Shown here in pieces: positions 1-9,539 of a stretch of 64,000 bases of DNA. The notes beneath the pieces were generated by a model. It was not told the DNA's origin, did not search any database, and saw only the letters and a list, made by a program, of their open reading frames with translations. Both the position numbers and the translations under genes were made by a program. Every line of letters begins with the position of its first letter. Position 1 is the first letter of the stretch. This DNA comes from Candidatus Doudnabacteria bacterium (lineage in GTDB: Bacteria > Patescibacteriota > Doudnabacteria > UBA920): NCBI GenBank assembly GCA_963837465.1, contig CAWINB010000004.1, positions 394,853 to 458,852 on the forward strand, given 5' to 3'.

Positions 1-274
1 CTTTTATTTTAGCTTCCCTGTTGTTTTCCTGGATATTAATGGCCTCGGCAGCCTTGGCGGTTAAGCATACCGACTTTGCCCCGCAGTATAATTAGAACCT
101 GACTTAAACAGGACTTACGCTTTTGGCATTATTGACCTGGATATTGTCCGACCAGCTTTTAAAAATGCCGCAATATGGACCCCAAAGACGGCAAAAATTC
201 TGGGATTGTTTGCCGGGGGAGGGTATGCTCCTGGCATGACGGCCTTAAGTATTTTTGGATAGGCTCGGGGGAAA

Positions 275-283
275 GTGCTATAA
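275..283 (+). promoter_or_regulatory. extended -10 element (TGcTATAAT) upstream of first ORF
   Basis: The sequence gtgctataat lies about 50 nt upstream of the ATG at 332. Confidence 0.3.
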
Positions 284-331
284 TTAAAATAATTAAAATT
301 AACCCTTTAAAAATAAAAAATTTATAATTTT

Positions 332-1942
332 ATGAAAATCGCTAAAATTACAACTTTTATTTTAAGTATTGTTTTATTTTTAGGATCCGCTTCAGCACTG
401 CCCGCCGCCGCCCTTACCTACTCGGAAATAAGCGGCCAGGGAACAGTTTTGGGAGCCAGCGTTAATGTTTCTTACCCCTATCCTTCCGGCAGTTTGGTCA
501 ATGACAGCGGCACCATTTACTTTATCAGCGGCGCCACCAAGATCCCCTTTACCAACTGGCAGGCCTTTGTGGGTTTGGGATATTCCCCAAGCAATGTGGT
601 TAAGGGCGATGTCTCCGATTATACCCCGGCTCAAAGTTATACCATCAACACAGCCAATGCCGCTCATCCCTGGGGTCAGTGGCTTTCTTACCGCGGCACG
701 GTTTACTATTCAACCCAGGCCGGCATGATAGCTGTTCCTTCCGCCGCCGTATTTTTAAATAACGGCGGTCAGTGGAATTTGCTGGTTAAGGCCAACAAGT
801 ATGATTTAACCGCCCTCGCTGCCAACCCTGGTTTGCCTTTGCTTGCCAGCAATGATCCCCGGATTATCGGCCTTCCGGATTTTGGATTTGGCGGTACTGC
901 CGGAGGGCCTTCCGTACCCGCGGCTCCGGTTAGTCCAGGCCTGCCTGCCGAATCTTCTTCTTTGTCCGTTCCTTCCGCTTCCGCCGCAAGCGGCATTGCC
1001 GGCAGTTTAAACACGGCGACTTTAAGCGTTTCTTCGCCCGCCGGCCAATTTGTGTTGTCCGGAGCCCAAAGCCAAACCGCGGCAGTATTTAATTTTACGG
1101 CTTCCGGCAGTCCGGTTACCATTGAGGAGCTGGATTTTATGGTACAAAACAGCGGCGCTTCCGGAATTACCCCGCCGGTTTCCTGGATTTACGTAGACGG
1201 CAATCCCGCGCCGGTATTGACCGGAGCCACCTCGTCGGTAAGCGGCTTAAATATTGTCGTGCCAAATAATGCCGCCGGAGTAAACGTGCCGGTCACAGCT
1301 TCTTACGCCAATATTAATCCTCCCAACAGCCCGTCCAACCAAATTTTTACCATCAACCTTGTTGGCGTTAAATATGTTACAGCCGGACAAACTATGACCC
1401 TTGCCCAAAGCTTGGTTTCCAATCCCATGGATTTGGTCAGCGTTATTCCCAGCGTTACCTTTAGCGGGCCGACCGGCATAATAACGGACGGACTGGTGCT
1501 GCTGGGCCAGGTTACTGTCAGCGCCACCGGAGGCGGAGGAATGCTTCTTGACCAGCTGCCGATTTCAGTCACCTCCTCGGGTAATGCCATTGCCAGCAGC
1601 GTTCCAAATAACCTAGTAGTTGACGATGACGGTTATGCCGTAAATACTTCCAACAGCGCGGTGACTTTCGCCCCCGGCGGCAACAGCAGCGCGGATATTG
1701 TTTTCAGCAGTGACAATACAATCGAGCCCGGCTTGTATAAAACTTATTCTATTTATTTGCCGGTGGAAGGCGCGGTGGGCGAAAGCGCGGGATCTTCCAC
1801 CATTACTACAACCCTGGGAAGCCCGGCCGGATTTATTTTTAATGACATTGACGGCAACACCAGCGGCTTAAATATTTCCGGCAGCAGCAACGGAGTCAGC
1901 ATTGCCAATTATTCAGCCAATTCGGTTACGGCCCACAATTAG
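332..1942 (+). CDS. secreted or cell-surface protein rich in Ser/Gly/Ala/Pro, function unknown
   Basis: The N-terminus (MKIAKITTFILSIVLFLGSASALPAAA) reads as a signal peptide. Composition is low-complexity with long S/A/G/P tracts and no recognisable catalytic motif. Confidence 0.5.
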   Translation: MKIAKITTFILSIVLFLGSASALPAAALTYSEISGQGTVLGASVNVSYPYPSGSLVNDSGTIYFISGATKIPFTNWQAFVGLGYSPSNVVKGDVSDYTPAQSYTINTANAAHPWGQWLSYRGTVYYSTQAGMIAVPSAAVFLNNGGQWNLLVKANKYDLTALAANPGLPLLASNDPRIIGLPDFGFGGTAGGPSVPAAPVSPGLPAESSSLSVPSASAASGIAGSLNTATLSVSSPAGQFVLSGAQSQTAAVFNFTASGSPVTIEELDFMVQNSGASGITPPVSWIYVDGNPAPVLTGATSSVSGLNIVVPNNAAGVNVPVTASYANINPPNSPSNQIFTINLVGVKYVTAGQTMTLAQSLVSNPMDLVSVIPSVTFSGPTGIITDGLVLLGQVTVSATGGGGMLLDQLPISVTSSGNAIASSVPNNLVVDDDGYAVNTSNSAVTFAPGGNSSADIVFSSDNTIEPGLYKTYSIYLPVEGAVGESAGSSTITTTLGSPAGFIFNDIDGNTSGLNISGSSNGVSIANYSANSVTAHN

Positions 1943-1968
1943 GGCGCCTTTTTTAACCAGGAATTTTT

Positions 1969-2634
1969 ATGAAAATTTTAGTGGCGGAAGATGAAAAGGA
2001 CATAAGAGACTTCCTGAAAAAAAATCTGGAAGCGGAGTGTTTCGCGGTTGACGCGGCGGCGGACGGAGAAACCGCAGTGTCCATGGCCAAACTTAACGAT
2101 TATGACATTATAATTTTGGACAACATCCTGCCCAAAAAACAGGGCGCCGATGTCTGCCGCGAAATCAGGGCCGCGGGCAAAAGCTTGCCCATACTTATGT
2201 TATCCGTAAAAACCGAAGCTTCGGCCAAGGTGGAGTTGCTCAACGCGGGGGCTGATGACTACCTGGGCAAACCTTTTTCCTTTGAGGAGCTGCTGGCCAG
2301 GCTGCACGCTTTGCTGCGCAGACCCAGGCCAATCCAAAATCAGCTCTTGGAAATTGAAGATTTAAAATTGGACTGCCGCAACCATTTGGCCCATCGCGGA
2401 GACAAAGGCATTTACCTTAGCCGCAAGGAGTTTATGCTGCTGGAGTATTTTATGAAAAACCGGGACAACGTTTTGTCGCGCGGCATGATTATGGAGCATG
2501 TCTGGGATATGAACGCCGATCCGTTTTCCAACACCATTGAATCGCACGTGCTGTCCCTGCGTAAAAAAATTGACGTGCCGGGAAGAAGGAAGCTTATCCA
2601 TACCGTTTCCGGCAGGGGTTACAAAATATCTTAA
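1969..2634 (+). CDS. two-component response regulator, OmpR/PhoB family
   Basis: A receiver domain (VAEDE, phospho-acceptor Asp in IIILDNILP, conserved K in LGKPF) is followed by a winged-helix C-terminus ending GRGYKI. Confidence 0.85.
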   Translation: MKILVAEDEKDIRDFLKKNLEAECFAVDAAADGETAVSMAKLNDYDIIILDNILPKKQGADVCREIRAAGKSLPILMLSVKTEASAKVELLNAGADDYLGKPFSFEELLARLHALLRRPRPIQNQLLEIEDLKLDCRNHLAHRGDKGIYLSRKEFMLLEYFMKNRDNVLSRGMIMEHVWDMNADPFSNTIESHVLSLRKKIDVPGRRKLIHTVSGRGYKIS

Positions 2635-2644
2635 AATGGGTTTA

Positions 2645-2676
2645 AGGCTCCGGCATCAAGCCGGAGCCTTTATTTT
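2645..2676 (+). terminator. rho-independent terminator after the response regulator
   Basis: A hairpin (aggctccggc atcaa gccggagcct) is followed by ttattttaa. Confidence 0.55.
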
Positions 2677-2896
2677 AAGTTCAGTAAAATTTTATATTTA
2701 TTTGAACAAGCTTTCAAAGGTTTTTCATGTAACCTTCGCTATTGTTTTAATGGATGGCCTGAAGCTATTTTTAAAAACAGCTTCAGGTAAAAAGTTCGCC
2801 AAGAACCTGTCCTAAAACAAATCGGAGGATTGAAGCCCCCGGGGCCTAAAGTTCTTTGACAACCCGCAACGTCGTTCAGAACAAAAAAAGGAAAAT

Positions 2897-3571
2897 ATGT
2901 TAACGAAAAATCAGACGCTTGTCGCGACCCGCGCCAGCCGCCAAAAAATCGGTTTCCCGGCGGATATTTCGCAGTGGCGCCACAGCCCCGCTGTCTACTC
3001 CGCCGGCAGCCTGTCCATTTGCGGCCATCCGGTCATGGAAAATTGGGAAACTCCCTATATGAAGGTTTTATCCGAAATCGCCTGCCAAAATGGCGGCGCG
3101 GTTTTGGAAGTTGGTTTTGGCATGGGTATAGCCTCCGGTTTTATCCAGGCCGCGGAGATTTTTTCCCATACGGTCATTGAGGCCAACGCAGGAGTGTTTA
3201 TACGGCTGCTGGAGTTTGCCAAAAATGCTTCCAGGCCGGTTAGTCCGACCTTGGGTTTTTGGGAAGAAATTTGTCCGGGTTTGCCTTCCGGCGGTTTTTC
3301 CGGAATTTTGTTTGACACCTATCCGCTATCCGAAGGCGATATCCACCAAAACCATTACGCCTTTTTTAGGGAGGCTTACCGGCTGCTTTGCCGGGGCGGA
3401 GCGCTGACTTACTATTCGGATGAAGCGCGGGATTTTTCCCCCGAACATCTGGAGTTATTGCGGACAGCCGGTTTTACGGATATCGGCGGCATAGTCTGTC
3501 CGGTCCGTCCGCCGCCGGACTGCCAATACTGGCAGCAGGGTAGTTTTTTGGCGCCGATCATCAGGAAATAA
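2897..3571 (+). CDS. guanidinoacetate N-methyltransferase (GAMT/RMT2)-family SAM-dependent methyltransferase
   Basis: Several blocks recalled from vertebrate GAMT are present: HPVMENWETPYM, VLEVGFGMGIAS (class I MT motif I), GILFDTYPLSE, and the C-terminal PPPDCQYW. Confidence 0.7.
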   Translation: MLTKNQTLVATRASRQKIGFPADISQWRHSPAVYSAGSLSICGHPVMENWETPYMKVLSEIACQNGGAVLEVGFGMGIASGFIQAAEIFSHTVIEANAGVFIRLLEFAKNASRPVSPTLGFWEEICPGLPSGGFSGILFDTYPLSEGDIHQNHYAFFREAYRLLCRGGALTYYSDEARDFSPEHLELLRTAGFTDIGGIVCPVRPPPDCQYWQQGSFLAPIIRK

Positions 3572-3592
3572 AAACAGGGAGCTATATATAAA

Positions 3593-3994
3593 ATGACGAA
3601 CATTTACGGACAACACCTTACATTGGACGGTTACGGAGCCAGCCCGGCCGCTCTTTCGGACCTGGCGCTGATTTACGATTTTTTGGACCGTTTACCGTTG
3701 CTGATCAACATGGAAAAAATAGGGCCGCCGCAGCTGGCAGTGTTTAAAAATGCCGGCAACGCGGGCATTACAGGGGCTATCCTGATTGTCACCTCGCATA
3801 TTTCCATCCATACTTATTCGCTTAAAGGCTGCCTGTTCCTTGACGTTTTTTCATGCCGGCGGTTCAGCGCGGAACTGGTTGTAAAAACGGTGACGGAAAC
3901 ATTCGGCATTGAGCGTTCGGAAATTTCAGTCATGGACAGAGGCAGGGAGTTTCCCGCCCGCAACCTTTATGGGCCGGAGATAAAAGCGTTATGA
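3593..3994 (+). CDS. S-adenosylmethionine decarboxylase-fold (class 1b SpeH/SpeD-like) pyruvoyl-dependent decarboxylase proenzyme, substrate uncertain
   Basis: The block GITGAILIVTSHISIHTY and the C-terminal LFLDVFSC match the SpeH self-cleavage and active-site region (ESHISIHTWPE ... DVFTCG). Here the canonical Glu-Ser and WPE residues are replaced by Thr-Ser and YSL. Confidence 0.65.
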   Translation: MTNIYGQHLTLDGYGASPAALSDLALIYDFLDRLPLLINMEKIGPPQLAVFKNAGNAGITGAILIVTSHISIHTYSLKGCLFLDVFSCRRFSAELVVKTVTETFGIERSEISVMDRGREFPARNLYGPEIKAL

Positions 3995-4710
3995 AGCGCC
4001 TGGATTTGATGGTGCGTCCGGCTAAGGAGCGGGACTGGCCGGCAATTTTAGAAATCGAACAGCGCTGGCAGCGGGACAATGTGGAGCCATTGTCGGAAAA
4101 AATTTTTCGGCTGTGGATGCGGACTCATCCGGAAGGTTTTTTGGTCGCGGTGGACGGCAGGGGGGAAGTTTGCGCCCATGCTTACGTTGAATGCGTCAGT
4201 TTCAGCTACGGACAGTTTAAAGCAGGGGAGAGCCGGGAAATTTTTACCCGTCCTTACGGCTCCCCCCGGCATAATCCGGACGGCAATTCCGTGCTGGTGC
4301 TGAACATTGCCGCCGTATCGGGAAGCGGCGGCGGAGTGGCGGCGTTGTCGGGGGTTACGGAGCTGGCTCGCGCCTGGGGCAAACAGAGGGTTTTTTACAT
4401 TCCCCGCATGCCCGGACTTTCCGCTTATCTGCAAGCCTGCCGGTCCTGGACACAGGCGGCGCTGCCGGACAAAAAAAGCATCGCCGCTTACTACGCGGTT
4501 AATTCCATGCGCGCGGTGGGCGCGGCAGTGGACACCGCGATTGCCGCGCGGGTGAAAGATCTGGAATTGCCCCCGGTGGAGAAACCCGACCAGGTACTGG
4601 CCCGTTTTATAGGCAGGGAACTGGGCGGCGAGTTGTGGGAAATTATTGACAGCGGCTACTCCGATCCGCTGAGTCTGGATTTGGCAGCGTTGTGCGTTAA
4701 GACTTTATGA
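3991..4710 (+). CDS. GNAT-family acetyltransferase-like protein
   Basis: The start overlaps the previous gene's stop (ATGA), so the two are translationally coupled. A motif-A-like Gly-rich segment (VSGSGGGVAAL) follows a beta-strand core (FLVAVDGRGEV). Confidence 0.45.
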   Translation: MKRLDLMVRPAKERDWPAILEIEQRWQRDNVEPLSEKIFRLWMRTHPEGFLVAVDGRGEVCAHAYVECVSFSYGQFKAGESREIFTRPYGSPRHNPDGNSVLVLNIAAVSGSGGGVAALSGVTELARAWGKQRVFYIPRMPGLSAYLQACRSWTQAALPDKKSIAAYYAVNSMRAVGAAVDTAIAARVKDLELPPVEKPDQVLARFIGRELGGELWEIIDSGYSDPLSLDLAALCVKTL

Positions 4711-4804
4711 CTTGGGGAACTATGCATTTTGGGGTGCCGGGCCAAGCCCGACACCCCTATTTTAAAACATAGCGTTTAATCACCGATAATGCTAAAATTA
4801 CCCT

Positions 4805-6796
4805 ATGATAAGCCCGTTTTTATTTACTTATATTTCCGGTATTTTTTCGGTAATTTGCTGGGTCTACGCCGGGGCGATAATCCGCAAGCGCCGCCAGAAG
4901 CCCCAGGTCCGTTATTTGGCCATGCTGATTGCCTTTGCCGGTTTGTGGGCTTTCAGTAATTCCTGGGCCGATGTCAGCGGAAGCAATGATCAGATACTTT
5001 TTTGGAGCGGCATGGCCATGTTAACCTACGCGTTTTTTACAGCCGGATTTTTTCATTTTACTTACCATTTTGTCGCGGAGTACCAGAAGCCCGCCAAGTG
5101 GATGCTGTGGTTGGTTTACGGGTTGACCATCATATTTTCGGTTTCAGGTTTTACTTCCTTAAGCTATTACAATCCCGTGGTGCTATATACCGGTCCAACC
5201 CTGGTTTCGGTTGGCTTTATGGCCGTAGCCGGCAACGCTTTTTTCTATCTGGTTTTTTTGGCCGCTTATTTTTTGCTCTGGAAAAATTACAAAAAAATGC
5301 CCCCGCGGCAGCGCTACCAGAGTATCTATATTGTAATCGGCAGCCTTGGGACAGTTATCGGCTGCGTGGTTTTTACCGTAATTTTACCGCTGTTCGGCAA
5401 CGCTAATTTTTACAGCACCGGACCGGTGTTTGACGCTTTTTTGATAGTCGGCATTTCTTACGCTATTTTTAAACATAACTTGCTGGACGTTAAATTTGTC
5501 ATCCAGAAATCCATCATTTACCTTTTTTTGCTGGGAATTATCGTGGTTTTTTATTTGACCCTGCTCTATGCCGCCCCCTACTTTCTGGACAACTCAGGCA
5601 GTCACGCCGTCTACCTGATTGACTCTTTGCTTACGGCCATAGCCGGCATTTTTGGTGTGCCTCCCCTGGAGCGCCGCTTCCGCAAAATCACCGACCGCTG
5701 GTTTTACCGCGACGCTTACGATTACGCCCAGGCTCTGCACGAACTCAGCGAGGTGCTGAAGCAGAATCTGGAACTGGAGCCGCTGAAACGGCGGACCGCG
5801 GAGACGCTTAAAAATTTTTTAAAGAGCGGTTATGTTGATTTGAGGCTGCTTGAGGAACCGGCGGGAACCGGCTTTATCGGTTTTGGCGTGGAGATTAAAT
5901 CATCCGGCAGGCAGATAGCCGAACTGCGGCTCGGTGAAAAACTTTCCGGCGACCCCTATTCCCAAAAGGATTTACAGCTCCTGAAAACTTTCGCCAATCA
6001 GGCCGCTGTAGCTCTGGAAAAAACCAGGCTGTTTGAACAGGTCAGGGCGCACTCGGTAATGCTGGAGGAGCAGGTTAACAGCCGCGCCGTCCAGTTGCGC
6101 GGGGCGCGGGAAGCCCAGAAGCAAATGATGATAGATATTTCCCATTCCCTGCAAACTCCGCTGACTGTAATGAAAGGACGCCTGGATTATCTGAAAAACC
6201 GCATCCCCGGAAATGAAGAGGTAAAAATTTTGGAAAAAACCGTGGACGAGATATCCAAGCGGGTTTATGATTTATTGCGTCTGGCCCGTTTGGAGGCCAG
6301 GGAAGAAATTTTTGATTTCCGGCCCATGAACTTAAGCGGCCTCGCCGGAGAAATGGTGGAATATCTCCAGGTTTTATGCGAAGCGCAAAATATTGCTTTG
6401 CGTTCCGCTATAGAGCCGGAAATTTTTGTACAGGGGGACAGGCAAAGGCTGGAAGAGATGATAAATAATATCGTCAGCAACGCCATTAAGTACACCGGTA
6501 ATGAACGTGTGATTTGGGTTTCGCTTCGCCGTAACGGCATTTCGGCCGAGCTTATTATACAAGACAGCGGCGTGGGTATAAATCCGGAGTCTTTGCCCTA
6601 TGTTTTTGACAGATTTTACAGAGAGCCCAATTCCAGCAACGCCGGCGGCATGGGTGTGGGCCTGGCCATAGCCAAAAAAATTGCCGAACAGCATAAAGGC
6701 AATATAAGCGCGGCAAGCGTTGTAGGCAAAGGTTCAACTTTTACTGTCAGCCTGCCGCCGTTGGTTGATGCGTTAAAAACCGGAATACCGGGTTAA
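4805..6796 (+). CDS. membrane sensor histidine kinase
   Basis: About six N-terminal TM helices are followed by a central GAF-like linker, a HisKA H-box (HSLQTPLTVMKGRLDYL) and HATPase_c N/G boxes (NAIKYT, GVGLAIAKKIAEQHKG). Confidence 0.85.
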   Translation: MISPFLFTYISGIFSVICWVYAGAIIRKRRQKPQVRYLAMLIAFAGLWAFSNSWADVSGSNDQILFWSGMAMLTYAFFTAGFFHFTYHFVAEYQKPAKWMLWLVYGLTIIFSVSGFTSLSYYNPVVLYTGPTLVSVGFMAVAGNAFFYLVFLAAYFLLWKNYKKMPPRQRYQSIYIVIGSLGTVIGCVVFTVILPLFGNANFYSTGPVFDAFLIVGISYAIFKHNLLDVKFVIQKSIIYLFLLGIIVVFYLTLLYAAPYFLDNSGSHAVYLIDSLLTAIAGIFGVPPLERRFRKITDRWFYRDAYDYAQALHELSEVLKQNLELEPLKRRTAETLKNFLKSGYVDLRLLEEPAGTGFIGFGVEIKSSGRQIAELRLGEKLSGDPYSQKDLQLLKTFANQAAVALEKTRLFEQVRAHSVMLEEQVNSRAVQLRGAREAQKQMMIDISHSLQTPLTVMKGRLDYLKNRIPGNEEVKILEKTVDEISKRVYDLLRLARLEAREEIFDFRPMNLSGLAGEMVEYLQVLCEAQNIALRSAIEPEIFVQGDRQRLEEMINNIVSNAIKYTGNERVIWVSLRRNGISAELIIQDSGVGINPESLPYVFDRFYREPNSSNAGGMGVGLAIAKKIAEQHKGNISAASVVGKGSTFTVSLPPLVDALKTGIPG

Positions 6797-6837
6797 GAGT
6801 AATATAAATAGTCATAAAGAAGCCTCTTTTTGACTTT

Positions 6838-7605
6838 ATGTGGTATAATACCAATATGAATTTACAGACTACATTAGTCTACAATTTACCCGCCAGCGAT
6901 TTATTGCTTACCGATAATGAGCGGCCTTATGTTTTGCGGGTTCGTGATTTTCCCGCGGAAGAAAAACCCCGCCAAAAGCTTATGCGTTACGGTCCCGGCG
7001 CTTTAAGCTTAAGCGAACTTTTGGCCGTGGTCTTTGGCGATGGCGGCGAAAAAGAAAAGGTCTTGGCCATGTCGGGACGGCTGTTAAAAGAGTACGGCGA
7101 AAAGGCCATAAGCGACCAGCGCGACGCCAAAATGCTGGCCAGGAAGTTGGATATTCCTTTGGCCAAAGCCTGTCAGTTGGTGGCCTGTTTTGAACTCGGA
7201 CGCAGGTTTTTTGCCAAGCCCAAAGGACGGCCGGAATTTTTACGCACCGCCCGCCAGGTTTTTGATTACGCCCGGGACATGCGCCTTCTGCCCAAAGAGC
7301 ATTTGCGCGGCATTTATTTAAACAACCATTACCGCCTGGTCCATGACGAGGTTATTTCCATCGGCACGCTTGACGCCAGCATCATCCACCCGCGCGAAGT
7401 TTTTAAGCCGGCTTTGGAACATTCCGCGTCCGCCGTTATTTTAGTTCATAATCACCCTTCCGGTGTCGTAGCTCCCAGCAAAAGCGATATTGATATTACC
7501 AGGCAAATGGTGGAAGCCGGCAAGCTGCTCGGAATTTTTTTGCTGGATCATATTATTGTCACCGACCAAAAATTTATAAGCATCCCCGCCGATTATGCCC
7601 ATTAA
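6838..7605 (+). CDS. radC: RadC/JAB (MPN)-domain protein, UPF0758 family
   Basis: The C-terminal JAMM-like motif HNHPSG and ...DHII, with SDIDITRQMVEAGKLLGIFLLDHIIV, is typical of RadC. Confidence 0.8.
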   Translation: MWYNTNMNLQTTLVYNLPASDLLLTDNERPYVLRVRDFPAEEKPRQKLMRYGPGALSLSELLAVVFGDGGEKEKVLAMSGRLLKEYGEKAISDQRDAKMLARKLDIPLAKACQLVACFELGRRFFAKPKGRPEFLRTARQVFDYARDMRLLPKEHLRGIYLNNHYRLVHDEVISIGTLDASIIHPREVFKPALEHSASAVILVHNHPSGVVAPSKSDIDITRQMVEAGKLLGIFLLDHIIVTDQKFISIPADYAH

Positions 7606-7921
7606 TTTTACATTTACAGCCCGAGATTTTATCGCCAGTTCGGGTTTCGCCATGAGTCCGTCATACTTTGTGCTGCGCGACAGGCCGTGGGAAAAATTCG
7701 GCCGGCAGGATATGGACGGCTATTTCAAAGACGGCTATAAAATATTCCAGCGCCGCCTCAGGGAATTTAACAAGCTTAAGCGGCCGCTGACATTAAAGGA
7801 AGAATACGAACTGGAGTTTATGCTTTCTTCGCTCGCGCACGCCAAAAAAGTTTTATACGAAGGTGTAGTGAAAATGCCCGAGTATGAGCCGGCACACAAT
7901 TTAGTTAGCTCAAAAAAATAG
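7595..7921 (+). CDS. hypothetical protein
   Basis: The ORF overlaps the radC stop and has no recognisable motif. Confidence 0.3.
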   Translation: MPINFTFTARDFIASSGFAMSPSYFVLRDRPWEKFGRQDMDGYFKDGYKIFQRRLREFNKLKRPLTLKEEYELEFMLSSLAHAKKVLYEGVVKMPEYEPAHNLVSSKK

Positions 7922-7942
7922 CAAAGTTATATAGCGGTCCGC

Positions 7943-7971
7943 GCCCCATCAAGGCCAGGGGCAGCCGGAAA
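7943..7971. repeat. copy of a roughly 30-bp repeat (gccccatcaaggccagRggcagccggaaa), family 5
   Basis: A near-identical copy lies at 61104-61133; both sit just downstream of plus-strand gene ends. Confidence 0.5.
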
Positions 7972-8008
7972 CTCTGTAACTTTTTAGTATTAAGCCCCTA
8001 AGAAGATC

Positions 8009-8854
8009 ATGACTTACCTTCAGGCTATCATCCTTGGCTTGGTCCAGGGAATTTCTGAATTATTTCCAATATCGAGCCTGGGGCACAGCGTGATTTTGCC
8101 CCGGCTTTTGGGCTGGAGTATCAACCAGAGTGCTCCGTTTTTTTTAAGTTTTTTGGTGGCTACGCATTTGGCCACGGCTGTGGTTTTATTCTGCTTTTTT
8201 TGGCGGGACTGGATGAATATTATAAAAGCCCTGGGCCGTTCTTTAGTCCGGAGGGAAATTAAAGTTGATGATTATTACGCCAAGCTTGGCTGGCTGCTGG
8301 TTTTAGGTACCATCCCGGCCGGAATTTTAGGCTTGCTGTTTCAGGATAAGCTGCAAACTCTGTTTGCTTCGGCTCGGGCCGCGGCCGGGTTTTTAATCCT
8401 AAACGGAGTACTTTTATACGGCGCGGAATTGCTCCGGCGGCGGTCGGACGCCGCGCGACAAGGGCAACCCTCGTATGAGCGTATTGCAAAGTTAACCTGG
8501 CGGCAGGGTTTTTTTATTGGCGTATCCCAAACTATTGCCCTAATTCCGGGCTTTTCCCGCTCAGGTTCCACTATGGCCGGCGGTCTTTTGGCCGGGCTTT
8601 CCCACGAAGACGCGGCGCGCTTCAGTTTTTTACTGGCCACGCCCATTATCGCGGCCGCGGCCGTACTGAAACTGCCGTCCCTAAACGGTTCCCAGTTTGG
8701 CATCACAATTGCCGGAGCGGCCTGCGCCGCCCTGGCCGCCTATTTCTCCGTAACCTTCCTGCTAAAATTTTTCAAAACCAACAAAATCACCCCCCTGGCA
8801 GCCTACTGTTTTTTCGCCGGGATAATTTATTCGGTGATTTTATATTTGAGATAG
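8009..8854 (+). CDS. uppP: undecaprenyl-diphosphatase
   Basis: The N-terminus MTYLQAIILGLVQGISELFPISSLGHSVI carries the BacA/UppP signature, and the protein has multiple TM segments. Confidence 0.85.
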   Translation: MTYLQAIILGLVQGISELFPISSLGHSVILPRLLGWSINQSAPFFLSFLVATHLATAVVLFCFFWRDWMNIIKALGRSLVRREIKVDDYYAKLGWLLVLGTIPAGILGLLFQDKLQTLFASARAAAGFLILNGVLLYGAELLRRRSDAARQGQPSYERIAKLTWRQGFFIGVSQTIALIPGFSRSGSTMAGGLLAGLSHEDAARFSFLLATPIIAAAAVLKLPSLNGSQFGITIAGAACAALAAYFSVTFLLKFFKTNKITPLAAYCFFAGIIYSVILYLR

Positions 8855-8933
8855 TTTTTTATATATAGGAACAGGAAACGGCAGCGGTGGCTAAAAAAGG
8901 TGTATAATATATTGAATTATTAAAAAGATCAAT

Positions 8934-9539
8934 ATGAAAATATTCAATCAAGACCAAAATAAAATGACTCTCAAAGACGGGAATGCTTCGGGATTAATAA
9001 TTGGAGTGGTTCTTATAATTGTCGGAGCTTATGGCGCTTATTATCTTCGTTCTACCGACGGATCCTCCAGCGCTGTGTGGGTTGCCGCGGCTGTCCTGTT
9101 ATTTGGGTTGATTACGATATTTGCCAGCTCTGCCATTATTGTCAATATCGACAAAAGCCAAAATCAGATCGCGTTTCAGAGAAAACGCTTACTGGGAAGC
9201 AAATCGCAAAACTATAATATTCCGGATGCCCTGCGGGTAGAATTGCGTAAGTCCTACCATATGCAATCGGCTAACCGTTCCTCAAACGGCGCAATGTCCA
9301 TGCCCCAGGAAGTCCTTAGTTACCAGTCCGTAATTATTTTTAAAGATGGCGCCGAATTGCCTTTGGATAATGTAAAGAATTCCAGCGGCACATCTATAGG
9401 CTCCGCTGTCTTAATGGGAGGCGCTGGAAAAGAACTGTCTATCGCCAGCCAAGTCGCCACTTTTTTAAATATCCCGTTTCAGGAGGTCGGACCGGGCTCC
9501 GCTCCAACGGTTATGGGTATGGGCGGTATAAATTTGTAA
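8934..9539 (+). CDS. hypothetical membrane protein
   Basis: Two TM helices are present; an extended -10 (ggtgtataat) lies upstream. Confidence 0.35.
   Translation: MKIFNQDQNKMTLKDGNASGLIIGVVLIIVGAYGAYYLRSTDGSSSAVWVAAAVLLFGLITIFASSAIIVNIDKSQNQIAFQRKRLLGSKSQNYNIPDALRVELRKSYHMQSANRSSNGAMSMPQEVLSYQSVIIFKDGAELPLDNVKNSSGTSIGSAVLMGGAGKELSIASQVATFLNIPFQEVGPGSAPTVMGMGGINL

Follow-up and report, generated by a model that had tools for sequence, protein, structure and literature searches.

A five-gene module that may convert arginine into a methylated guanidino-amine has been identified in the genome of a Candidatus Doudnabacteria bacterium (assembly GCA_963837465.1), within a stretch of 64,000 nucleotides of contig CAWINB010000004.1 (positions 394,853 to 458,852 of the forward strand) that is referred to here as the window. 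The module comprises genes for a methyltransferase (MT) related to guanidinoacetate N-methyltransferase (GAMT), a pyruvoyl decarboxylase (DC) with the fold of S-adenosylmethionine decarboxylase (AdoMetDC) and a protein of the GNAT fold (ORF3), set between the genes of an OmpR-type response regulator (RR) and a sensor histidine kinase (HK). The family and fold of the five proteins, the boundaries of the operon, the order of its genes, the MT-DC fusions of related genomes and the differences in the active sites are directly established. It is proposed that the module leads from arginine to agmatine and then to an agmatine methylated on its guanidino group, possibly with N-acylation, and that the two-component system on either side exerts control over the pathway or senses it, a reading which is considered to stand at an even balance of probability.

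What we infer are the substrates, the sequence of the reactions, their product and which way the regulatory link runs. In the proposed scheme, DC would decarboxylate a basic amino acid, L-arginine or one close to it, to a guanidino-amine (agmatine), and MT would then move the methyl group of S-adenosylmethionine (SAM) onto the guanidino group of agmatine. By analogy with GAMT, the methyl group may be placed on the substituted nitrogen, which would yield 1-(4-aminobutyl)-1-methylguanidine. ORF3 would modify this product, most likely through an acyl-CoA-dependent N-acylation of the free amine, while the two-component system would control the operon or sense the product, possibly via the 7TM or GAF domain of the kinase. 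The three-step scheme is drawn from the combination, seen across related loci, of a constant MT, a variable amino-acid decarboxylase and a third enzyme of a type that forms amides or methylates amines. An N-methylagmatine chemistry, possibly including acetylation, had been suggested in an earlier note made from the DNA sequence by a model, and it would fit the loop lost from MT and the basic-amino-acid decarboxylases dependent on pyridoxal phosphate (PLP) that accompany some MT relatives.

Layout of the operon and its recurrence in other genomes

The three plus-strand open reading frames (ORFs) of the operon, as well as the RR and HK genes, lie exactly where the earlier note had placed them (Table 1), and all the motifs it quoted have been found. 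RNA folding gave -22.4 kcal/mol (z = -5.4) for the terminator-like hairpin behind the RR gene and -21.9 kcal/mol (z = -3.6) for the one behind ORF3, and a promoter-like site is present at 4761-4790, 5' of the HK gene. The translational coupling of MT and DC put forward in that note needs correction in its detail: the two genes do not overlap and are separated by a 21-nt spacer containing an AGGGAG ribosome-binding site; the only overlap is an ATGA shared by the stop of DC and the start of ORF3. Because of these terminators, spacings and overlap, MT, DC and ORF3 look like one transcription unit, with RR and HK on either side.

Table 1. Coordinates of the module genes, of the hairpins that bound the operon and of phased repeats in related loci (positions without a locus prefix are those of the window)
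Feature	Position	Strand	Evidence or description
RR, OmpR-type response regulator	1969..2634	+	Pfam Response_reg 2.9e-27 (receiver), Trans_reg_C 3.1e-23 (winged helix)
Intrinsic-terminator-like hairpin 3' of RR gene	2644..2670	+	Terminator scan; 11-bp stem then TATTTT
MT, predicted GAMT-family SAM-dependent guanidino N-methyltransferase, loop-deleted 'YYSDE' clade	2897..3571	+	224 aa
DC, class-1b AdoMetDC-fold pyruvoyl proenzyme	3593..3994	+	133 aa
ORF3, stand-alone GNAT-fold protein, 'GNAT-like decarboxylase' structural subfamily	3991..4710	+	239 aa
Terminator-like hairpin and T-rich tail 3' of ORF3	4731..4757	+	RNA fold
HK, HisKA_7TM N-terminal domain, weak GAF, HisKA and HATPase_c	4805..6796	+	Pfam; 663 aa
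Phased-repeat site, RR-MT intergenic	L005:5865-5915		
Phased-repeat site, RR-MT intergenic	L006:5241-5290		
Phased-repeat site, RR-MT intergenic	L007:5826-5875		
Phased-repeat site, RR-MT intergenic	L016:5884-5925		
Phased-repeat site, RR-MT intergenic	L034:5865-5895		
Phased-repeat site, RR-MT intergenic	L022:4037-4055		

When 185,579 species-representative genomes were scanned with a sequence pattern, 341 were found to contain a relative of MT, and 80 loci were fetched and analysed by ORF calling, custom hidden Markov models and all-against-all clustering, with taxon labels as given by the submitters. The nearest relatives of the window proteins belong to bacteria of the candidate phyla radiation (CPR). 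Related genomes also have the three genes side by side, as the earlier note would require, and fusions occur in some of them. MT and DC are adjacent in 23 of the 80 loci, a decarboxylase of any type lies within 5 kb of MT in 38, and fusions of MT with DC occur in the proteins P0018, P0052 and P0105 and in the loci L013, L019 and L085.

Four architectures have been distinguished. In architecture A (15 loci) the order is MT-DC-ORF3-HK7TM, and in 12 of these an orthologous RR lies directly upstream, as in the window; the genomes concerned are labelled Parcubacteria, Falkowbacteria, Paceibacterota, Yanofskybacteria and Uhrbacteria, together with small metagenome-assembled genomes (MAGs) labelled Gammaproteobacteria. 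The same order is given by independent metagenome gene calls, comprising an RR, a PF27704 protein, a PF02675 protein, a protein of about 240 aa lacking Pfam matches and a HisKA_7TM kinase with a weak GAF domain. Architecture B, mainly from Saccharibacteria, combines MT with a PLP decarboxylase of the ornithine/lysine/arginine type, an EamA exporter, a membrane protein and HK. Architecture C consists of an EamA/DMT transporter, sometimes DC, a PurD-like ATP-grasp ligase, MT and HK7TM, while architecture D pairs MT with an amidinotransferase. A PLP decarboxylase replaces DC as the partner of MT in 15 loci, and that of architecture B is closest to the lysine/ornithine decarboxylase 5gjm (1.6e-51), eukaryotic ornithine decarboxylase and the arginine decarboxylase of PBCV. 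The third gene is ORF3 (15 loci) or, in architecture C, the PurD-like ligase, both being of amide-forming types.

Within architecture D, L084 brings MT and the amidinotransferase together with a DMT transporter, a PLP decarboxylase and an amine N-methyltransferase resembling GntF. A second methyltransferase of this kind, from the NNMT/PNMT/TEMT family, has also been observed at L013:7017-7847 and in L038 and L063; its best NCBIfam match is GntF, the amine N-methyltransferase of guanitoxin synthesis (51.9 bits, below the cut-off of 60), which suggests that the amine end may be N-methylated in these four variants.

The methyltransferase and the decarboxylase

The claim that MT is a close GAMT homolog, grouping with that enzyme, has been borne out. 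MT matches the human and rat GAMT structures in the PDB with E = 3.4e-44 (phmmer), is 44% identical to human GAMT and has a precomputed Pfam match to PF27704 (GuanidinoAc_N-MeTrfase); local copies of Pfam and NCBIfam gave no match. Animal GAMT (EC 2.1.1.2; PDB 3orh, 1xcj) performs the last step of the AGAT-GAMT route to creatine, and its SAM-binding motif I is identical to that of MT, VLEVGFGMGIAS. Residues E51 (in WETPYM) and D140 (in FDTYPLSE) are the equivalents of rat E45 and D134, the latter having been proposed as the catalytic base (PMC12471008), and both of them, as well as motif I, are unchanged across 80 homologs. Such homologs were described in the earlier note as rare in bacteria; they are uncommon, but not very rare, with at least 341 of the 185,579 genomes and more than 741 clusters at 90% identity containing one.

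Unlike the animal enzyme, MT is associated with decarboxylases and a sensor kinase rather than with an amidinotransferase, and the GAMT loop CNLTSWGELMKSK (rat C168-K180) is deleted from it, with 13 residues removed and YYSDE (Y172-Y173-S174-D175-E176) in their place. Both the deletion and YYSDE are found in every MT of the 80 loci that is linked to a decarboxylase or HK. This loop, through L170 and T171 of the rat enzyme, is reported by Komoto et al. (2004) to hold the carboxylate of guanidinoacetate. It is retained only in cyanobacterial homologs linked to an amidinotransferase (L062, L067 and L071), which have the animal loop nearly letter for letter (TYCNLTSWGNL-KSQY) together with GILYDTYP. 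These homologs constitute a natural control, from which it appears that the loop tracks a guanidino-acid pathway and that its deletion tracks something else. No amidinotransferase has been found within positions 1-9500 of the window, and one is adjacent to MT in only 6 of the 80 loci.

These data bear on an alternative in which methylation comes first, with MT acting on free L-arginine in the manner of SznE and DC then decarboxylating the resulting N-methylarginine to N-methylagmatine. A precedent exists in saskemycin, whose N-methylagmatine units have been proposed to derive from omega-N-methylarginine via an arginine methyltransferase (PMC12637814). In that system, however, the genes form part of large actinomycete biosynthetic gene clusters and another nitrogen is methylated (2-N-methyl), and the actinomycete MT loci L028 and L042 contain no SznF-like neighbours, only an amidohydrolase, a canonical GNAT, a WYL regulator and a glyoxalase. 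The position of MT as the N-terminal part of the MT-DC fusions would agree with this order, and the unusual DC pocket (HTY..K) might suit a modified arginine. Nonetheless, MT lacks the loop tied to carboxylate substrates, which the amidinotransferase-linked homologs keep, and its invariant acidic residues D175 and E176 would be better suited to an ammonium group than to an alpha-amino acid. Methylation ahead of decarboxylation is therefore regarded as improbable, and decarboxylation of arginine followed by methylation of agmatine is retained as the preferred order.

Additional observations concern the distribution of the MT family. Amidinotransferase-like genes stand beside loop-keeping GAMT homologs at L062:4512-6645, L067:5956-8786 and L071:1-1376 (from Dapis, Okeania and an SBLK MAG), and these pairs are candidates for a true bacterial AGAT+GAMT (creatine-like) pathway. 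Loop-deleted homologs are also present in DPANN-type and Methanosarcinales archaeal MAGs (L025, L053, L058, L064 and L075), in which neither a decarboxylase nor a kinase has been recognised within 5 kb of MT. The 90%-identity cluster of the fusion protein P0018 includes a 49-aa 'Escherichia coli hypothetical protein' (WP_250696468.1 / AQZ20322.1), probably as a result of contamination or mis-assignment.

DC matches Pfam AdoMet_dc (PF02675) at 9.8e-21, remains below the cut-off of the AdoMetDC equivalog TIGR03330 (58.4 bits as against 75.65) and reaches only 28 bits with the best solved AdoMetDC structure. Its motif residues read T67-S68-H69...H73-T-Y75-S-L-K78...C88, with a predicted cleavage site at T67/S68. 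The self-processing core reported in the earlier note is indeed kept, as S68, H73 and C88 align with S63, H68 and C83 of Thermotoga maritima (pyruvoyl Ser, catalytic His and Cys). The active-site stretch is VTSHISIHTYSLK, in which HTYSLK stands where AdoMetDC has HTWPE, so that the Pro, Trp and Glu of the latter are gone. An alignment of 24 MT-linked DCs with AdoMetDC and SpeDC references revealed that Thr-Ser is restricted to a small subclade (the window, L007, L018, L032 and L072), most MT-linked DCs having Glu-Ser. The altered site described in the earlier note, Thr-Ser with YSL, is thus real in the window copy, but Thr-Ser is not a hallmark of the family; the family-wide change is that of HTWPE to HTY..K or, in the sister set of architecture C, to HTFPKR with the Pro kept.

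Bona fide AdoMetDC always has the Pro of HTWPE, which is lost in the arginine-type enzymes SpeDA; these are polyphyletic and therefore have no positive sequence signature (Li et al. 2023, PMC10407285). The ornithine-type enzymes SpeDC have Gln, Thr, Phe and Tyr as diagnostic residues, in the context QLIETSLxSGHFAN, and their Thr-Ser cleavage sites are functional (PMC10407285, Fig. S5). Like SpeDA and SpeDC, DC is a small class-1b pyruvoyl proenzyme with the Ser, His and Cys kept and is found in CPR/DPANN-type genomes. It shares with SpeDA the loss of the Pro that marks AdoMetDC, a negative and weak criterion, and with SpeDC only the Thr among the diagnostic residues, its own signature being HTY..K. 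DC is accompanied by a GAMT-like MT, to which it is fused in some cases, and by a GNAT-like protein, whereas the partners of SpeDA and SpeDC are SpeB, AguA, SpeY, HSS or SpeE; clusters of the MT-DC type are not mentioned by Li et al. 2023 (PMC10407285). No SpeE gene has been seen among the annotated genes that surround the window locus and the related loci. Assignment of DC as a bona fide AdoMetDC has been rejected on account of the missing HTWPE residues and the sub-cut-off score, as the earlier note had foreseen, and assignment as SpeDC on account of the missing Gln and Phe and the reading SH instead of SL. From the motif alignment and the score, DC appears to form a distinct, diverged clade that is neither AdoMetDC nor SpeDC, and its sequence is compatible with an arginine-type enzyme.

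Two further alternatives concern the reaction of DC. In one, DC would still decarboxylate AdoMet, and the decarboxylated SAM would go either to the GAMT-fold protein, serving as an aminopropyltransferase for a guanidino compound, or to an enzyme whose gene lies elsewhere. The class I methyltransferase fold is found in spermidine synthases too, the AdoMet_dc fold and processing residues of DC are intact, and the DCs of architecture C retain the Pro. This is nevertheless the least probable of the explanations weighed here, given the replaced residues and low score already described, and MT is near-identical in motif I and its surroundings to GAMTs that are methyltransferases. In addition, the replacement of DC by PLP basic-amino-acid decarboxylases in 15 loci implies that DC supplies an amine and not decarboxylated SAM.

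In the other alternative, DC would be an ornithine (SpeDC-like) or lysine decarboxylase and MT would act on the amine, yielding a methylated and/or acylated diamine such as N-methylputrescine. The PLP partner of architecture B, being closest to lysine/ornithine decarboxylases, could be taken in this sense, as could the Thr-Ser site of the window DC, yet only one of four SpeDC diagnostic residues is present, the SL..GHF context is absent and most orthologs have Glu-Ser. The Glu/Asp pair with which GAMT binds the guanidino group is invariant in the MTs, and the amidinotransferase of L084 would turn a diamine into a guanidino-amine. A diamine product is accordingly held to be very improbable, and agmatine remains the preferred substrate of MT.

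ORF3 and the two-component system

Searches with ORF3 alone against Pfam, NCBIfam and PDB sequences gave no match. Its AF2 model (pLDDT 96) has a GNAT fold, in agreement with Foldseek. Only 2 relatives were recovered by a word-indexed search, as against 134 clusters by an exhaustive profile search. The family profile matches GphF at 2e-10, and weak Acetyltransf_1 matches occur in 14 of 81 family members (best E 2e-4). Canonical GNAT N-acyltransferases have the CoA-binding motif (Q/R)xxGxG/A; in the ORF3 family G113-x-G115 is conserved in 72 of the 81, and R9, D15, E23, W42, H94, G98, R139, Y168, D200, D225 and S228 are invariant or nearly so. From fold and profile, ORF3 belongs, as a free-standing protein, to the structural subfamily of GNAT-like decarboxylases; it shares the extra elements of this subfamily with malonyl-CoA decarboxylase and with domains of polyketide synthase (PKS) loading modules (GphF 6mfc, CurA 2ree/2ref, SxtA 7uci). 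Unlike the latter, it stands outside any PKS context, with no acyl carrier protein or ketosynthase near it at the window locus. The statement that a GNAT-like gene completes the operon is thus correct as to fold and transcription unit, but this is not an ordinary GNAT, its nearest relatives being the PKS domains.

The catalytic dyad of CurA and malonyl-CoA decarboxylase is Thr355/His389 (CurA numbering), and canonical GNATs have a general-acid Tyr at the His position (PMC3701320; bioRxiv 2025.03.07.642089). Via GphF, in which the spacing of the dyad is 34 residues as in CurA, the counterparts of the two positions in ORF3 are residues 138 and 206, a tentative mapping because the second aligned segment is weak. 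The window copy has P138 and F206, and a CurA-type decarboxylase is not supported for it since the Thr/His dyad is absent. On the same tentative mapping, position 138 is Ser or Thr in 50 of 81 family members and position 206 is His in 25; among orthologs in the same operon position, Thr/His occurs in L005, L012, L016 and L023 and Ser/Tyr in L007, L018, L019 and L021, others being different. N-acylation of an amine by ORF3 is favoured, with low confidence. A metagenome pattern search for further ORF3 loci (alignment A1) confirmed none.

The boundaries of the metabolic unit have been considered in the light of loci that lack some of its genes. In L002 the order is RR-ORF3-HK-RadC, with no MT or DC, and in L004 it is DC-ORF3-HK, from which it appears that ORF3 travels with the kinase and that MT-DC is a separable pair. 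The three-gene cassette of the earlier note is real as a co-localisation, but it is better described as an MT-DC pair joined to an HK-associated ORF3. It follows that ORF3 might be an accessory of the two-component system, either modifying or loading the ligand of the kinase or acylating a signalling protein, with the metabolic unit limited to MT and DC. ORF3 is always directly 5' of the 7TM HK, its GC content is 0.58-0.61 compared to about 0.51 in MT and DC, and in L017 and L020 MT-DC-HK is found with an unrelated protein of 221-225 aa in its place. However, the ATGA overlap puts ORF3 in the transcription unit of DC, between two terminators, and outside L002-L004 the ORF3 homologs of the fetched genome loci all adjoin MT-DC. 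A purely accessory role is thus judged improbable, and ORF3 is kept as the third enzyme of the proposed pathway.

The protein that replaces ORF3 between DC and HK in these two architecture-A loci (L017:2077-2742 and L020:7082-7759) is unannotated and has no Pfam match. It was tried as a relative of ORF3 and rejected (hhalign probability 0.3, not significant), a local likeness of SWRMLGL to PRMPGL being the sole hint of a tie. The raised GC of ORF3, which also exceeds that of its surroundings (HK being about 0.46), could reflect an Ala/Gly/Arg-rich composition or a separate origin. The segment L002:7296-11032, on a metagenome contig, matches the gene order of window positions 1969-7605 except for MT and DC, and RadC (6838-7605 in the window) and BacA/UppP (8009-8854) belong to this shared synteny.

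RR and HK have the domains of a two-component system, namely a receiver with Trans_reg_C in the former and HisKA with HATPase_c in the latter, and HK matches HisKA_7TM at 7e-14 (Pfam). Its non-kinase sensor region (residues 1-430) is homologous to that of MT-adjacent kinases in 32 of the 80 loci, covering architectures A, B and C. The earlier note had left open whether the operon is regulated by the RR/HK pair or inserted into it. Since the order RR-MT-DC-ORF3-HK recurs in 12 loci and the same sensor domain is found in three arrangements, a conserved functional link is favoured over mere insertion. The tight, architecture-independent tie to one kinase family further suggests a role for the two-component system in regulating the pathway or in sensing what it makes.

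Direct repeats of the form (C/T)TTTAT(C/A)T, phased by 11 or 22 nt, have been observed 5' of MT in several architecture-A loci (Table 1), and TTTATCT is about 26-fold enriched in RR-MT intergenic regions compared to the rest of the loci. Phased repeats of this kind are typical of OmpR-family binding sites, and these are put forward as putative ones; they are not evident at positions 2671-2896 of the window.

A more far-reaching interpretation is that the module gives the ultra-small CPR/Patescibacteria, and a small number of other lineages, a complete circuit for signalling with a small molecule, assembled from a creatine-synthase homolog and a re-purposed AdoMetDC. MT, DC and ORF3 (or the ATP-grasp ligase) would make the signal, an agmatine derivative both methylated and N-acylated, which would be exported by the EamA/DMT transporters seen in sister architectures, sensed by the co-inherited 7TM/GAF HK and relayed to the OmpR-type RR, in a quorum-sensing-like or host-epibiont context. 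The exporters and the GAF domain of the kinase allow for such an interpretation, which is considered unlikely on the whole. Signal-synthase genes are clustered with a sensor kinase and a regulator in the CqsA/CqsS system of Vibrio and the lqsA-lqsR-lqsS system of Legionella, and the module resembles these in having small-molecule biosynthetic genes beside a membrane kinase and RR. It differs from them in having no homology to their synthases or sensors, and the link could here equally be plain transcriptional control of a metabolic operon.

Several observations weigh against the proposed pathway. The 80 loci are the best-scoring of the 341 and are biased towards relatives of the window MT, and in about 33 of them neither a decarboxylase nor an HK lies within 5 kb of MT; these unclassified loci share no common partner, their neighbours being mixed (Dus, radical SAM, DprA, SDR and others). 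L002 shows that ORF3 and the kinase can occur apart from MT and DC. Arginine is suggested as the substrate of DC from context only, given that SpeDA offers no positive signature, and the Lys/Arg of HTY..K and HTFPKR would be odd beside a cationic guanidinium. The window ORF3 has neither the CurA dyad nor a recognisable canonical GNAT catalytic pair, and its orthologs vary at these positions (T/H, S/Y, P/F), which makes its reaction uncertain.

Implications and surroundings of the module

All of the component proteins belong to known families. In the literature consulted, which was an incomplete library, nothing has been found on GAMT-AdoMetDC operons or fusions, on GAMT in Patescibacteria, on the YYSDE clade or on stand-alone homologs of the GNAT_L domain in such a context, and no ligand of HisKA_7TM kinases is described in this same incomplete library. 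If the proposal is correct, the AdoMetDC fold would gain another neofunctionalised clade with a new partner, GAMT would have a widespread prokaryotic sister clade for non-carboxylated guanidino compounds, and the cyanobacterial AGAT+GAMT pairs would be a real bacterial counterpart of creatine synthesis. It would also provide the first physiological context for free-standing proteins related to the PKS 'GNAT-like decarboxylase' domain and the first candidate ligand or pathway for HisKA_7TM sensor kinases. Considering how small the genomes of CPR bacteria are and how few regulatory systems they contain, a conserved, dedicated two-component system around a three-gene amine pathway would likely matter for their lifestyle.

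Additional features have been observed around the operon. A search for riboswitches and other RNA elements 5' of MT revealed none, with a single sub-threshold chance match in positions 1800-7000, and a tRNA-Val is the sole RNA gene found in the whole window. The upstream region of MT contains a near-perfect palindrome, CCTGAAGCT-N12-AGCTTCAGG, at 2758-2787, and beside it a 9-nt direct repeat (GCTATTGTT/GCTATTTTT) at 2738 and 2764; a 17-nt imperfect repeat is present at 2749 and 2820. Each of these may be regulatory. Directly 5' of RR, positions 332-1942 encode a protein of 536 aa, the N-terminus of which resembles a signal peptide, while its long low-complexity body is rich in Ala, Ser, Gly and Pro; the protein has no Pfam match and is also an annotated gene call on the source contig.

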